From the NCBI GenBank assembly GCA_048550195.1, contig JBLYYR010000200.1:3721-67720 (forward strand): a stretch of DNA of 64,000 nucleotides, in the 5' to 3' direction. The notes beneath the pieces are model-generated. The model ran no database searches, was not told the DNA's origin, and was given only the letters and a program-made list of their open reading frames with translations. This document shows positions 3,346-62,604 of this stretch, piece by piece. The DNA is from Arenicellales bacterium (GTDB taxonomy: Bacteria; Pseudomonadota; Gammaproteobacteria; BMS3Bbin11). Made by a program: the position numbers and the translations under genes. Within the stretch, counting starts at the first letter, position 1, and every line of letters starts with the position of its first letter.

Positions 3346-3759
3346 TCCTTCCTGTATTTCATAATCATGCGTAATTTCCACTGCTTTCGCCAGCATTATC
3401 GATGCCGAGCAGTATTTCTCTGCTGAAAGCCTGATCGCACGTTCGACATGTTTCGTACCCAAACCTTTGCCGGTGACAATAAAGTGTACGTGTATATGGG
3501 TAAAAACAGCGGGAACGGCATCCGCTCGCTCTGCCTCTATCACTGCCTTGCAAGCGGTGACGTCCTGACGTGATTTTTGTAACATCAGCATCACATCAAT
3601 GGATGAACAACCGCCCAGTCCCATCAACAATAACTCCATCGGCCGGGAGCCCTTATTTTCACCACCTGCTGCAGGGCTGGCATCCATCAATACCTTATGG
3701 CCACTGTCTGCGCTCGCCTCGAAGGCAATTCCGCCGGCCCAGTCAACTTCTACTTTCAT
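3343..3759 (-). CDS. OsmC/Ohr-family peroxiredoxin-like protein, overlapping trpC by 4 nt (ATGA)
   Basis: 138 aa, OsmC-family length and conserved Cys pair (GGCSSIDV...TACKAV); start overlaps trpC stop. Confidence 0.75.
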
Positions 3760-4562
3760 AATATTCCCTCAAATAATTGTGCCAGTCTATCGCCCGGCTC
3801 GTCGGCGCGCATAAAGGCTTCACCTATCAGGAACGCCCGCACATCATGCTCCAGCATGCTTTCCACATCGGACCGTTCATGTATGCCACTTTCGGTAACG
3901 ACTATCCGGTCATCGGGTATCTCTGCAAGCAGGGAGATTGTGGTCTGCAACGAGGTGTCGAAGGTGCGCAGGTTCCGGTTATTTATACCTATCAGTGTGG
4001 TGTTTAGATTCAAAGCACGTGCCAGTTCTTCAGCATCATGCACCTCTACCAGCACGGCCATATCCAGTGAATGGGCAAGTTGTGAAAATTCTCTCAGTTG
4101 ATCATCATCCAGTGCGGCCACGATAAGAAGTATGCAGTCACCACCGATTAAACGCGATTCATAAACCTGGTAGGGGTCAATGATGAATTCCTTGCGCAGC
4201 ACCGGTAACTGGCAAGCATCTCTTGCCTCCTTCAAATAGGCATCGCAGCCCTGAAAATACTCGATATCGGTGAGTACCGATAGACAGGCTGCACCACCGT
4301 TTTCATAACTGCGAGCGATCCGGGCAGGATCAAAGTTCTCCCGCATGATGCCCTTGCTTGGAGAAGCCTTTTTGATTTCAGCAATGGTTGCCGCCCTGCC
4401 AGCTTCGACACGCTCTCTAATGGCTGCAACAAAATCTCTGGTCGGTGCAATACTGACCAGTTCAGACTGTATCTGCTGCAGTGATATACGTTGCCTTCTC
4501 TCAGCCACCTCCCGTGCCTTGGTATCGAGGATGTTTACTAATATATCAGCGACCTTGCTCAT
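3756..4562 (-). CDS. trpC: indole-3-glycerol phosphate synthase
   Basis: 268 aa TIM-barrel IGPS sequence ([21 protein letters not shown]); TAATG overlap with trpD. Confidence 0.92.
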
Positions 4563-57930: not shown

Positions 57931-59217
<1,287 letters not shown>

Positions 59218-59251
59218 TTAAAAATAAATATTTAGTTCACAGAAAACTGAT

Positions 59252-59285
59252 GACACATGACATTAACATGCCATGTCATGACACG
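59252..59285. promoter_or_regulatory. inverted repeat CATGACAT-N10-ATGTCATG flanked by direct TGACAC, ~50-80 nt upstream of the sqr start codon: candidate operator
   Basis: tgacacatgacattaacatgccatgtcatgacac. Confidence 0.35.
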
Positions 59286-59390
59286 GTTGCCACGTTACAG
59301 CCTGCTCTTTGTCTTGGTTTCAGGCTTTCTGTCCGTTTTTGTATAACTAAATTTTATTGAAGGAAGAATCGTGCCAACTTGTACACGCGA

Positions 59391-59494
59391 TAAAAAAAAC
59401 CTCAATCCGGGGGTAATGGATTGAGGTTAACAGGGTTCTGTTTTGCCAGAACCTTCCGCTCAGGGAGGAAAAGCGGAAACACATCTAGCGATGT
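59391..59494 (-). ncRNA. candidate sRNA downstream of polA on the same strand (Spot42/ErsA positional analogue): 4 stem-loops, CU-rich loop, intrinsic terminator; sigma-E-type promoter GGAACTA-N17-TCTGA at 59501-59529
   Basis: minus strand: ACAUCgcuaGAUGU, UUCCGCUuuuccucccugAGCGGAA, GGUUCUGgcaaaaCAGAACC, AACCUCAAUCCauuacccccGGAUUGAGGUU then UUUUUUUU. Confidence 0.5.
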
Positions 59495-59925
59495 AAAAAC
59501 TCAGACAAGTACCTTTATCGAATAGTTCCCGCACAAAGCTTGTTATAATTATTCTGAATTACGTTTTAGATACTAGCTGTTACGTCACTGCTGTCCAGAT
59601 AAATGGCTGTGATACGCATACAATGCATTGATTAAACAAGGAATAGTCGTTTTCAGGGTGATTGAAGGCATGAAGCACCTGCATTTATCCGAAGCAGATT
59701 TGCAAATCATGCCTTGCAAAAACATAACGCTTTTGACCTTCCTGCATTCCCTGCGACCCTCGCGAGAGAACTCTTTTTTGTGCAGGTTTGGGGCGGCTGT
59801 TTTTCATGTCTCCGAAGCCTTAAGCTCCCGTAATAGCAGCACTCTCAATACTTACTCATCGGTTGATATTTCTTTGTGGGACAGTAATGGTGTTACGTGA
59901 AACCGAATACGTATAACTAAAGCCG

Positions 59926-62604
59926 TTAATGCGCCTCATCCCAATTAGCCCCTACCCCGACATCAACCAGCAAGGGAACCCGCAAGTCAGCAATTCCTGT
60001 CATCAGAGCCTGAATTTTGTCACTGGCATCTGAAACCTGACCGGCCGGTACTTCAAATATCAGCTCATCATGCACCTGCATAATCATCCTGATATCCTGC
60101 GCTTCATGCTGGATCCAGTTATCCACTGCCATCATTGCCATCTTGATCAGGTCGGCAGCAGTACCCTGCATCGGCGCATTGATGGCGGTGCGTTCGGCAT
60201 ATTGCCGGCGCATGCCGTTGCCGGAGTTTATTTCAGGCAGATAAAGCCGACGACCATAGACAGTTTCCACGTAGCCCTGTTCATGCGCCAGCTTACGGGT
60301 TTCATCCATGTATTTTTTTACGCCGGGGTATCGCTCGAAATACAGATCGATGTACTCCTGTGCTTCGCCGCGCTCAAGGTTAAGCTGCTGAGCCAGGCCG
60401 AAGGCCGACATGCCATAAATCAGGCCAAAGTTGATCGCCTTGGCAGAACGTCGCTGATCGACTGTCACCTCATCCAGCGGAATGGCAAAGACCTCGCTGG
60501 CGGTTGCCTTATGAACATCTGCACCGTCAGAAAATGCCTTCAACAGGCCATCATCTCCGGATAGATGCGCCATGATGCGCAGCTCTACCTGCGAATAATC
60601 TGCAGACACCATGAGAAACCCGTCATCGGGAACAAAGGCCTGCCGTATTCGCCTGCCCTCTTTCGACCTGACAGGAATATTCTGTAGATTCGGGTCAGAT
60701 GATGATAAGCGTCCGGTCGCAGCAACGGCCTGGTGATACGAGGTATGTACACGCCCGGTTCTGGGGTTAATCATCAGCGGCAGTTTATCGGTGTAGGTAG
60801 AGCGCAGCTTACTCATAGAGCGGTATTCGAGAATAAGGCGCGGCAGGTCATAGTCTGGTGCCAACTCCTGCAGCACAGCCTCCGCAGTTGATGGCTGGCC
60901 TTTCGGCGTCTTTTTTATGACCGGCAGCCCCAGCTTGTTAAACAAAATATCCTGTAGCTGTGCCGGCGAGCCCAGATTGAACTCCTGACCAGCTGCTTCG
61001 TGGGCCTGCCGTTCAAGATCCACTATGGCCTGCGCAAGCTCAGAGCTTTGGCGCTTTAGCATCCCCGCATCAATACGCACACCGTTGCGCTCCACCTTCG
61101 CCAGTATCGGCAACAGAGGCATTTCAATTTCACGATAAACAAATGTCAGTTTTTCATGTTTTTCCAGTGCCGGCCACAGGCGCTCATGCAGGCGCAGGGT
61201 GATATCGGCATCTTCCGCCGCATAGGGTGAGGCCTGTTCCAGTGCTATGTCATTAAATTTGAGCTGCTTCTTGCCCTTGCCGGCAATGTCTTCGAAATGA
61301 ATGGTTTTATGCCCCAGATGCTTCATTGCCAGGGTATCCATATCATGCCGGGATGCCGTGCTGTCCAGTACATAGGATTCCAGCATGGTGTCGTGCTCGA
61401 CACCCTTAAGCGTAATCGCATAGTTGGCCAGCACCTTCATATCATATTTGAGGTTCTGGCCGATCTTTTTGAGCCCTTCATTTTCCAGCAACGGCTTCAT
61501 CTGCAGCAGCACCTGCTCACGATCAAGTTGCTCCGGCGCACCGGGATAATCATGGGCCAGTGGAACGTAGGCCGCCCTGCCAGCCTCAATGGCAAAGGAC
61601 AGACCAACGATTTCGGCCTGCATGGCATCCAGGTCCGTGGTCTCGGTGTCGAACGCAAAAATACCTTCCTGCTGTATCTTATTTAACCAGACATCCAGTG
61701 AAGACTGATCCAGCAGCGTATCGTATTCGGCATCAGCACTCAGCTCATCATTCGCACCACCCAGTTCCGTCAGCCAGGTCTTGAACTGCAGCTGCGCATA
61801 GAGATCTTTAAGGCGTGATTCATCGGCCGCATTAATCTTTAATTCATCCAGCTTGAGCGGAAGATCAAGCTGACAACGTATGGTGACCAGGTCACGGGAA
61901 AGCGGAAGAAACTCCAGCGAATCACGCAAATTCTCACCCAGTTTACCTTTGACCTCATCGGCACGTTGCATCAATGTATCGAGATCACCAAATTCTTCAA
62001 GCAGCTTCACTGCCGTTTTTGGCCCAACCTTGGGGACACCGGGTATATTGTCAGCAGTATCACCCACCAGTGTCAGGTAATCGATAAACTTATCGGCAGG
62101 CACGCCAAAGCGTGTCTTAACACCGTCAATATCCGTCACCCTGTTATCCATCGTATTGACCAGGGTGACATGCTGATTGACCAGCTGTGCCATATCCTTA
62201 TCGCCAGTCGATATCAGGACATCAGCCGAGTTCGCCACCGCCTGTGACGCCAGGGTACCGATCACGTCATCGGCCTCAACACCTTCAATCACCAGCAAGG
62301 GCAGCCCCATTGCCTCAATAATTTCATAGAGAAAAGGCACCTGGCTGCGCATCTCATCCGGCATTGGCGGCCGATTAGCCTTGTACTCTTGGTACAGATC
62401 ATTGCGAAATGTTTTGCCTTTGGCATCAAATACCATGGCAATATATTCCGGCTGATACTGCTTCAGGAGACTACGCGTCATGTTAATAACACCGTAGATG
62501 GCGCCGGTGGGCTGGCCTTCAGAATTATTCAGGCCCGGCATGGCGTGGAAGGCACGGTAGAGGTACGACGATCCGTCGACCAGAATTATAGGAGCTTTAG
62601 GCAT
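59926..62604 (-). CDS. polA: DNA polymerase I
   Basis: 892 aa; 5'-3' exonuclease, 3'-5' exo and pol domains (motif A DYSQIELR, motif B RRSAKAINFGLIYG, motif C HDE). Confidence 0.95.
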   Translation of the reverse strand: MPKAPIILVDGSSYLYRAFHAMPGLNNSEGQPTGAIYGVINMTRSLLKQYQPEYIAMVFDAKGKTFRNDLYQEYKANRPPMPDEMRSQVPFLYEIIEAMGLPLLVIEGVEADDVIGTLASQAVANSADVLISTGDKDMAQLVNQHVTLVNTMDNRVTDIDGVKTRFGVPADKFIDYLTLVGDTADNIPGVPKVGPKTAVKLLEEFGDLDTLMQRADEVKGKLGENLRDSLEFLPLSRDLVTIRCQLDLPLKLDELKINAADESRLKDLYAQLQFKTWLTELGGANDELSADAEYDTLLDQSSLDVWLNKIQQEGIFAFDTETTDLDAMQAEIVGLSFAIEAGRAAYVPLAHDYPGAPEQLDREQVLLQMKPLLENEGLKKIGQNLKYDMKVLANYAITLKGVEHDTMLESYVLDSTASRHDMDTLAMKHLGHKTIHFEDIAGKGKKQLKFNDIALEQASPYAAEDADITLRLHERLWPALEKHEKLTFVYREIEMPLLPILAKVERNGVRIDAGMLKRQSSELAQAIVDLERQAHEAAGQEFNLGSPAQLQDILFNKLGLPVIKKTPKGQPSTAEAVLQELAPDYDLPRLILEYRSMSKLRSTYTDKLPLMINPRTGRVHTSYHQAVAATGRLSSSDPNLQNIPVRSKEGRRIRQAFVPDDGFLMVSADYSQVELRIMAHLSGDDGLLKAFSDGADVHKATASEVFAIPLDEVTVDQRRSAKAINFGLIYGMSAFGLAQQLNLERGEAQEYIDLYFERYPGVKKYMDETRKLAHEQGYVETVYGRRLYLPEINSGNGMRRQYAERTAINAPMQGTAADLIKMAMMAVDNWIQHEAQDIRMIMQVHDELIFEVPAGQVSDASDKIQALMTGIADLRVPLLVDVGVGANWDEAH

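Follow-up and report, generated by a model that had tools for sequence, protein, structure and literature searches.

What is the RNA encoded on the minus strand just downstream of polA in a 64-kb stretch of an Arenicellales metagenome-assembled genome (contig JBLYYR010000200.1; this whole stretch is called the window below)? A first-pass annotation had described there a unit of about 100 nucleotides (nt) with four stem-loops, some 430 nt after polA, and had left its family unrecognised. We saw again every sequence feature it described, and found that the RNA belongs to Rfam family RF02837, anti-hemB, whose Burkholderia representative is called ncS04. Judged by its sequence, the locus is a genuine new small RNA (sRNA) gene of the anti-hemB family, about 103 nt long, in a new host class and a new context. 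Because it is a member of RF02837, the RNA can be annotated with existing models, and taken alone it would be an ordinary member in a new host. The wider picture comes from its relatives. In the literature we searched, there was no report that the family reaches well into the Gammaproteobacteria, mostly below the Rfam threshold; none that engB, and not hemB, is its constant neighbour, which gives the family the same slot as ErsA and Spot 42; and none of a sigma-E-type promoter conserved across most engB-linked copies. Together, range, neighbour and promoter offer for this orphan sRNA family a role in an envelope-stress regulon that can be tested, and they argue against its reading as a heme antisense RNA.

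Identification of the small RNA gene

The polA gene is the open reading frame (ORF) 59926..62604 (-), whose product of 892 amino acids (aa) has all the DNA polymerase I domains; the predicted start of the sRNA, near 59494, lies about 430 nt past its stop codon. The sole Rfam match in the 64-kb window is to RF02837 ('Burkholderia RNA 7'), at 59392-59479 (-), with 61.7 bits against a gathering score of 49.5 (E = 5e-12) and with model positions 1-81 of 81 aligned. Moreover, a covariance model that we built from 18 sequences with all four hairpins specified (R1), the 5' hairpin included, matches 59393-59495 at 77 bits. The first-pass annotation had suggested a check against the Spot 42 model. That model gave no match in 59000-60000 even at E <= 10, and RF02837 matched instead; as a positive control, the same model finds Spot 42 at 123-124 bits in two metagenomic polA loci (L143 3860-3976 and L199 3849-3966).

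The anti-hemB motif was described as a betaproteobacterial, terminator-ending motif and proposed to be a non-coding RNA; 31 of its 37 copies are not in cis, so that the hemB context is typical without being absolute (Weinberg 2007, PMC1950547). In Burkholderia cenocepacia J2315 it corresponds to ncS04, a 105-nt transcript seen by Northern blot and 3' rapid amplification of cDNA ends, which co-purifies with Hfq, has the gene arrangement '<- -> <-' and keeps a constant level over the seven conditions tested (PMC5688073, PMC4603805). Since the Arenicellales are an order of Gammaproteobacteria, the window copy lies beyond the described range of the family. The typical context, a betaproteobacterial host with a neighbouring hemB, is not found in the window: polA lies upstream of the sRNA, and a same-strand FAD oxidoreductase gene (57931-59205) lies downstream.

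Relatives were collected from two sources. A genome scan with the core pattern of hairpin 2 gave at least 120 loci, about 15 of which are chance matches in coding DNA; among the matches listed, most are from Betaproteobacteria (Burkholderiales, Rhodocyclales, Methylophilales, Nitrosomonadales, Gallionellaceae and Hydrogenophilales). The other source was metagenomic: searched with the C-terminal 200 residues of PolA, it yielded 80 gammaproteobacterial polA loci at 64-83% identity. At E <= 1, R1 gave 35 matches, the window and 34 others in 33 of the 80 polA loci. All 35 are on the polA strand, and the 34 locus matches lie 37-900 nt past the end of the polA match. Only two of 20 R1-positive polA loci reach the Rfam threshold, so that the present family model misses most gammaproteobacterial members. 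When 40 polA loci were scanned with Rfam (L192, discussed below, excluded), nothing besides anti-hemB, Spot_42 and tRNA exceeded the threshold.

Structure and covariation

The minus strand between 59385 and 59500 folds into four consecutive hairpins (Table 1) with a minimum free energy of -43.3 kcal/mol and z = -6.47, and none of 200 dinucleotide shuffles reaches the native fold energy. Hairpin 1 stands directly ahead of the CCGC stem in the flanks of the genome-scan loci as well and was seen in 18 of the 18 seed sequences, each folded singly, although it is missing from the Rfam model. As in RF02837, hairpin 2 is closed by CCGC/GCGG and presents the loop CCUCCCUG, and the CU-rich loop pointed out in the first-pass annotation is indeed present in it. 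The RNA ends, again as in RF02837, in a rho-independent terminator with a stem of 9-11 bp and a U-run. This terminator had been read as an 11-bp stem followed by U8; the terminator stands, but its stem uses two of the U's, which leaves either 11 bp with U6 or 9 bp with U8.

Table 1. Position of the predicted sRNA, its hairpins and its promoter elements in the window
Feature	Sequence	Position	Strand	Remark
sRNA, about 103 nt		59392..59495	-	5' end near 59494, predicted from promoter spacing; 3' end in the U-run 59399-59392
Sigma-E (RpoE/AlgU)-type -35 element	GGAACTA	59523..59529	-	from sequence; identical in the closest relative, L121
Sigma-E-type -10 element	TCTGA	59501..59505	-	17 nt after the -35 element
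Hairpin 1 (5' hairpin)	UACAUC GCUA GAUGUG	59480..59495	-	outside the Rfam model
Hairpin 2	UUUCCGCUUUUCCUCCCUGAGCGGAA	59454..59478	-	CU-rich, anti-Shine-Dalgarno-like loop UUCCUCCCU at 59470-59462
Hairpin 3	GGUUCUG GCAAAA CAGAACC	59434..59453	-	from the fold
Intrinsic terminator	stem AACCUCAAUCC/GGAUUGAGGUU, C-rich loop AUUACCCCC	59392..59428	-	hairpin 59428-59398, T-run to 59392

In relatives these helices covary; the first-pass annotation had proposed to check this on polA-downstream regions. In an alignment of 85 members fitted to the covariance model, 94.2% of the cells hold standard pairs and the covariation score is 0.603; sliding the partners by 1-3 columns lowers these values to 36-54% and 0.04-0.10. 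Changes on both sides are found in 28 of the 30 pairs, and each of the four helices covaries: compensatory changes affect 7/7 pairs of hairpin 1 (92.7% of cells paired), 8/8 pairs of helix 3 and 9/9 pairs of helix 4 (95.1% of cells paired), and helix 2 is 99.8% paired. A plain MAFFT alignment of 69 members analysed with RNAalifold recovered hairpin 2 alone, because loop lengths vary; it was replaced by a structure specified by hand on 18 homogeneous sequences and by model-based realignment. The motif CCTCCCTGA is invariant in the 69 aligned members, 64 of which were collected by a pattern that fixes it. In the independent, polA-selected set, CCUCCCU is kept in most members, and some diverged ones carry CCCUCC or UCUCCCC. 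When the window is compared with its closest relative, L121, promoter and RNA stand out as an island of conservation, in which the differences in the terminator stem change A-U to G-U and C-G to U-G.

The variation of the family also bears on whether the locus encodes a small protein. An ORF of 45 aa (59347-59484, -) overlaps the RNA structure and appears in the mechanical ORF list. However, its product has no Pfam match, its ATG, which sits in hairpin 1, is missing in most family members, and family variation tracks base-pairing, with insertions and deletions in loops and no reading frame. We find a small protein hardly credible. The sequence data thus support a discrete, structured sRNA gene with its own predicted promoter and terminator.

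A second C-rich motif recurs in the terminator and hairpin-3 loops of the family (for example in L007, L013, L145 and L168): CCCCUUU in betaproteobacterial terminator loops, ACCCCAAG in gammaproteobacterial hairpin-3 loops, and AUUACCCCC in the terminator loop of the window. These loops may serve as additional seeds. Right after the terminator, at 59366-59387 (-), a block conserved with L121, GTTGGCACGATTCTT, overlaps a weak terminator-like hairpin, CGTGTACAAGTTGGCACG.

Promoter

We then asked how the gene might be transcribed. The proposal that GGAACTA-N17-TCTGA is an RpoE/AlgU-type match at the right spacing was borne out: searched on both strands, GGAACTW-N15-18-TCTRA occurs once in the 64 kb, against 0.09 matches expected, and the element is conserved in relatives. 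A strict motif (GAAC, 18-20 nt, TC..A, ending <=16 nt before the model start) is present in 42 of 104 members, namely in 21 of 34 polA-linked members and in 21 of 70 genome-scan members among the matches listed, whereas the background is 0.36% of random positions. Many of the members outside the strict motif are one-base variants of it. Where the strict motif is present, 4-5 nt separate the end of the -10 element from the model start in 39 of 42 members, and many genome-scan members have GGAACTT-N16/17-TCTnA about 25 nt ahead of the CCGC stem. From this fixed distance between motif and hairpin, the transcript is predicted to start at the first hairpin, near 59494, and to be about 103 nt long, near the 105 nt of ncS04. 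The data thus support the conservation, in relatives, of a predicted sigma-E-type promoter at a fixed distance from the 5' hairpin. The predicted promoter in the window (59529-59501) also resembles the GAACTT-N16-17-TCTGA-like promoter expected of an ErsA-like gene.

With a slightly looser motif, the 33 engB-adjacent genome-scan copies among the matches listed comprise 20 sigma-E-type promoters and one sigma-70-type promoter, whereas 21 of the 37 listed copies that are not engB-adjacent are sigma-70-type, mostly in Comamonadaceae. The Comamonadaceae copies carry TTGAAA-N17-TAAATT instead, and the Burkholderia and Paraburkholderia copies a sigma-70-like TTGAGA-N17-TATCAT. Because some lineages exchanged the promoter and ncS04 was unresponsive in the conditions tested, the main alternative to sigma-E control is a real family sRNA whose GGAAC...TCTGA element is read by the housekeeping sigma factor or by another extracytoplasmic function sigma factor, with constitutive or metabolically regulated expression. 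The sigma-70-like promoters of Comamonadaceae and Burkholderia and the constant level of ncS04 over seven conditions speak for it, and so might a sigma-70-like TGGACA-N16-TAGTAT about 70 nt further upstream in the window (59597-59570). Nevertheless, this site is one of two found where 2.8 are expected by chance, and the sigma-E-type motif and its distance to the hairpin are conserved across distant lineages, far above background. Moreover, the same motif precedes the ErsA copy in the same slot, and ErsA is AlgU-dependent in the literature. We therefore regard an sRNA outside sigma-E control as unlikely, although it is the strongest competitor.

On the plus strand, an extended -10 element had been placed at 59541-59551 and taken to suggest divergent or antisense transcription. 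The sequence TGTTATAAT is present, but at 59541-59549, and neither its TG extension nor its context is kept in L121. A divergent or antisense promoter at this site has no other support, and no transcript is known to start there.

Two arrangements were seen among the relatives. The near-identical TTGAAA-N17-TAAATT promoters of the Comamonadaceae copies (for example L006, L024, L025, L029 and L106) come with a long GAUGUGUGACAGCAAAAAGG middle hairpin, away from engB; these copies look like a relocated sub-family under different control. In Nitrosospira briensis Nsp8 (L119, 702-915, -), two sRNA copies stand in tandem about 120 nt apart, as sibling sRNAs do, with a sigma-E-type promoter on the upstream copy only.

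Chromosomal context

The usual gammaproteobacterial order is polA, the sRNA in the same orientation, and then a convergent gene for a GTPase of 200 aa; a diheme cytochrome c gene and the gene for DsbA come next. TIGR03598 identifies the GTPase as YihA/EngB, with 222 bits where 124 are required. A convergent engB lies downstream of polA in 43 loci, 30 of which carry the sRNA. In nine of the 13 engB-convergent loci without it, the gap between polA and engB is 15-78 nt (L155, L160, L163, L173, L175, L182, L190 and L195, among others), which leaves no room for an sRNA; the slot has apparently been emptied in those nine lineages. The genome scan gave a similar picture: among the matches listed, 56 loci, mostly betaproteobacterial, have engB beside the sRNA motif, 45 of them also with the cytochrome gene, and 33 of 70 model-aligned members have a convergent engB at most 500 nt away. 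The left neighbour varies: it is a divergent hemB in five of the five engB-adjacent loci tested outside the Methylophilales, and a UvrD-like helicase gene in the Methylophilales. As engB recurs across both classes while the left neighbour varies, the conserved anchor is engB and not hemB.

This arrangement is relevant to the name of the family. A cis-antisense regulator of a neighbouring gene was the original idea behind 'anti-hemB', and a 2026 preprint assigns the family an antisense role in the regulation of heme synthesis (bioRxiv 10.64898/2026.09.01.748597). In favour of this idea are the name of the family and the hemB gene often found next to it in Betaproteobacteria (PMC1950547). However, in those betaproteobacterial loci that were examined hemB lies upstream and points away, so that the RNA does not overlap it, neither hemB nor engB stands beside the sRNA in the window, and engB is the constant neighbour across classes. 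A cis-antisense role appears highly improbable to us.

In the window itself, engB was not found anywhere in the 64 kb, and it is absent also from L121; thus only the polA half of the slot has been kept. In both the window and L121, the sRNA precedes the same-strand FAD oxidoreductase gene. One could therefore imagine a cis element, either a structured 3' untranslated region or terminator of polA, or a leader or attenuator of the oxidoreductase gene: polA, the RNA and the next gene follow one another on one strand, L121 has this arrangement too, and the terminator stands 186 nt ahead of the oxidoreductase start codon. On the other hand, the RNA starts 430 nt from the polA stop codon and has its own conserved promoter-like motif. 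In most relatives, the convergent engB downstream makes a leader role impossible; betaproteobacterial copies follow hemB or uvrD-like genes, and Comamonadaceae copies are elsewhere in the genome. A cis element is in our opinion very unlikely.

Other observations concern the flanks. The spacer between the polA stop codon and the sRNA promoter is about 400 nt in the window (59530-59925), where its ORFs of 40-90 aa have no Pfam match, and the sRNA starts 141 nt after polA in L121. Upstream of the oxidoreductase gene, at 59225-59300 (-), repeated TGTCATG / TGTCATGACA motifs (GTGTCATGACATGGCATGTTAATGTCATGTGTCATCAG) are kept in L121 despite diverged surroundings; they look like an operator for a regulator of the oxidoreductase gene. 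In L170, a gene for an OmpA-like outer-membrane beta-barrel protein of 177 aa lies between polA and the sRNA (3675-4208, +), which is suggestive for a putative envelope-stress sRNA.

Proposed function

According to these results, we consider it probable that the locus is an independently transcribed, trans-acting sRNA of the anti-hemB/ncS04 family, about 103 nt long, driven by sigma-E and of the Hfq type, whose CCUCCCU loop masks Shine-Dalgarno sequences. In this scenario, an RpoE-type extracytoplasmic-stress sigma factor would transcribe the gene from GGAACTA-N17-TCTGA, and the transcript would begin at the first hairpin (about 59494) and end at the intrinsic terminator (about 59392-59395). 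Hfq would bind the 3' hairpin and the U-tail, by analogy with the Burkholderia member, the only one for which binding has been demonstrated. The loop of hairpin 2, CCUCCCU(G), may mimic the 16S anti-Shine-Dalgarno sequence, pair with ribosome-binding sites of the AGGGAGG type and block translation of the target mRNAs. The targets would probably be abundant envelope proteins, as for MicA, RybB, MicL and the ErsA-oprD pair. We speculate that the 3' end of engB is an old sRNA slot, whose other flank would be polA in Gammaproteobacteria and hemB in Betaproteobacteria and which ErsA or Spot 42 would occupy in other lineages; in this Arenicellales lineage engB would have moved away and the sRNA would have stayed beside polA.

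Several points weigh against this proposal. Sigma-E dependence is predicted from a promoter consensus, and the B. cenocepacia copy appears sigma-70-like (TTGAGA-N17-TATCAT). The covariation alignment was fitted to the model, so that its pairing is inflated, and the genome-scan members were collected with a pattern that already fixed part of hairpin 2, at its top. Furthermore, an anti-Shine-Dalgarno loop is generic and does not identify targets, and a target search within the 64-kb window gave no credible site. In that search, the duplex energies were dominated by spurious ORFs and by stem sequence. The best loop-complementary sites, 33746- and 35762+, were rejected, as they lie within longer ORFs, on the opposite or the same strand, and away from any credible start site.

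Comparison with known small RNAs

The closest known system is anti-hemB/ncS04 itself. The window RNA shares with it the match over the full model, the CCGC...GCGG hairpin with its loop, the middle hairpin, the intrinsic terminator, a length of about 103 nt here and 105 nt there, and a 5' hairpin outside the Rfam model. It differs in its gammaproteobacterial host, in having polA and not hemB upstream, and in that engB is not adjacent. Its predicted promoter is sigma-E-type, unlike the sigma-70-like one of the Burkholderia copies, and its hairpin 2 is closed by U-A pairs (GCGGAA), where the other has GCGGG.

The type of seed and the type of control recall other groups. In CU-rich anti-Shine-Dalgarno sRNAs, the seed is presumed to lie in unpaired, C-rich loops that can pair with ribosome-binding sites (PMC5688073). 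The presumed seed type is thus common to the window RNA and to the Burkholderia 'double-hairpin' ncS27/RF02278, Neisseria NmsR/RcoF and RsaE/RoxS, although these are separate families with another architecture and context, none of whose models matches in the window. As for control, MicA, RybB and MicL in E. coli and VrrA in Vibrio are Hfq-type, translation-repressing sRNAs driven by the envelope-stress sigma factor. They act through seeds at their 5' end against specific outer-membrane protein or lpp mRNAs, and not through an anti-Shine-Dalgarno hairpin loop. By analogy, the same logic is predicted here, with no sequence relationship.

Spot 42 and ErsA are the sRNAs to which the position of the locus had first been compared. 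Spot 42 (RF00021, in Enterobacterales and Vibrionales) is repressed by CRP, transcribed with sigma-70, and uses U-rich single-stranded seeds. The order polA-spf-yihA/engB is its recognised context, and the genuine Spot 42 genes of L143 and L199 lie between polA and a convergent engB, in the same slot. The window has the polA side of this arrangement, and the full order polA -> sRNA -> <- engB is found in 30 homologue-bearing relatives. Shared with Spot 42 are this gene order in relatives, an intrinsic terminator and, as predicted here, an Hfq-type trans-acting mode.

Before it received its present name, ErsA had been listed as a 'putative Spot42' beside PA5492 engB (PMC3349714). It is controlled by AlgU, depends on Hfq and represses the porin OprD (PMC7264166); its seed is a U-rich single strand at nt 26-56 (PMC5819304). 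We identified an ErsA orthologue in L192 through the published PAO1 reverse primer (PMC5819304, Table S2), which matches exactly at 3829-3849. It is 132 nt long (about 3727-3858) with TGAACTT-N17-TCAGA upstream (3690-3858 overall), and no engB match was found in the 3 kb downstream of it. In the fold of this RNA, a U-rich stretch with little structure separates the 5' hairpin from a middle hairpin, after which comes the terminator, whose loop is UCCCUCCCCAUAC. The slot downstream of polA, the promoter type, the 5' hairpin, the middle hairpin and a C/U-rich terminator loop are thus common to ErsA of Pseudomonas aeruginosa and the window RNA. However, the segment equivalent to the U-rich single-stranded seed of the 132-nt ErsA is here a stable hairpin that presents CCUCCCU in a CU-rich loop, and no Rfam family links the two.

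Sequence scores were weak. R1 scores the L192 orthologue at 15.9 bits (E = 0.5); a second model built from 35 members with L192 excluded (R2, whose E-values are roughly calibrated) scores it at 25.8 bits (E ~0.0014), with an alignment that takes in the middle hairpin, the linker and the CU-rich loop of the terminator. R2 gives Spot 42 20.7 bits (E ~0.02), mostly via the terminator, and R1 does not find Spot 42. The sRNAs of L150/L162, L185 and L198 have a sigma-E-type promoter and a UCUCCCC or UCUUCCCCUA motif, apparently unpaired in L150/L162, and are possible intermediates. The suggestion that the locus is a member or an analogue of the Spot 42/ErsA position thus holds for position, as seen in L143, L199 and L192, but the RNA is not Spot 42 by sequence and its similarity to ErsA is marginal. 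Altogether, our results show that the slot is common to Spot 42 and ErsA and that the promoter type is that of ErsA. The weak sequence score suggests common descent with ErsA, and common descent with Spot 42 is only possible.

We tentatively propose, while thinking it rather less probable than not, that anti-hemB/ncS04, the polA-downstream gammaproteobacterial sRNAs, ErsA and perhaps Spot 42 share one ancestor, an anti-Shine-Dalgarno sRNA gene driven by sigma-E that stood at the 3' end of engB before Beta- and Gammaproteobacteria separated. Lineages would then have swapped the promoter (for sigma-70 in Comamonadaceae and Burkholderia, for CRP control in Spot 42), exchanged a hairpin-loop seed for a single-stranded one, or lost the gene. 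If there was indeed a single ancestral engB-linked sRNA, 'anti-hemB' is misnamed, and the family would be a regulator of envelope stress and not of heme. Whether Spot 42, ErsA and other sRNAs with a conserved position share an origin has long been asked, and these relatives make the question directly testable. In our view, the part most worth following up is this engB-anchored, mostly sigma-E-type slot that the family has in common with ErsA and Spot 42.

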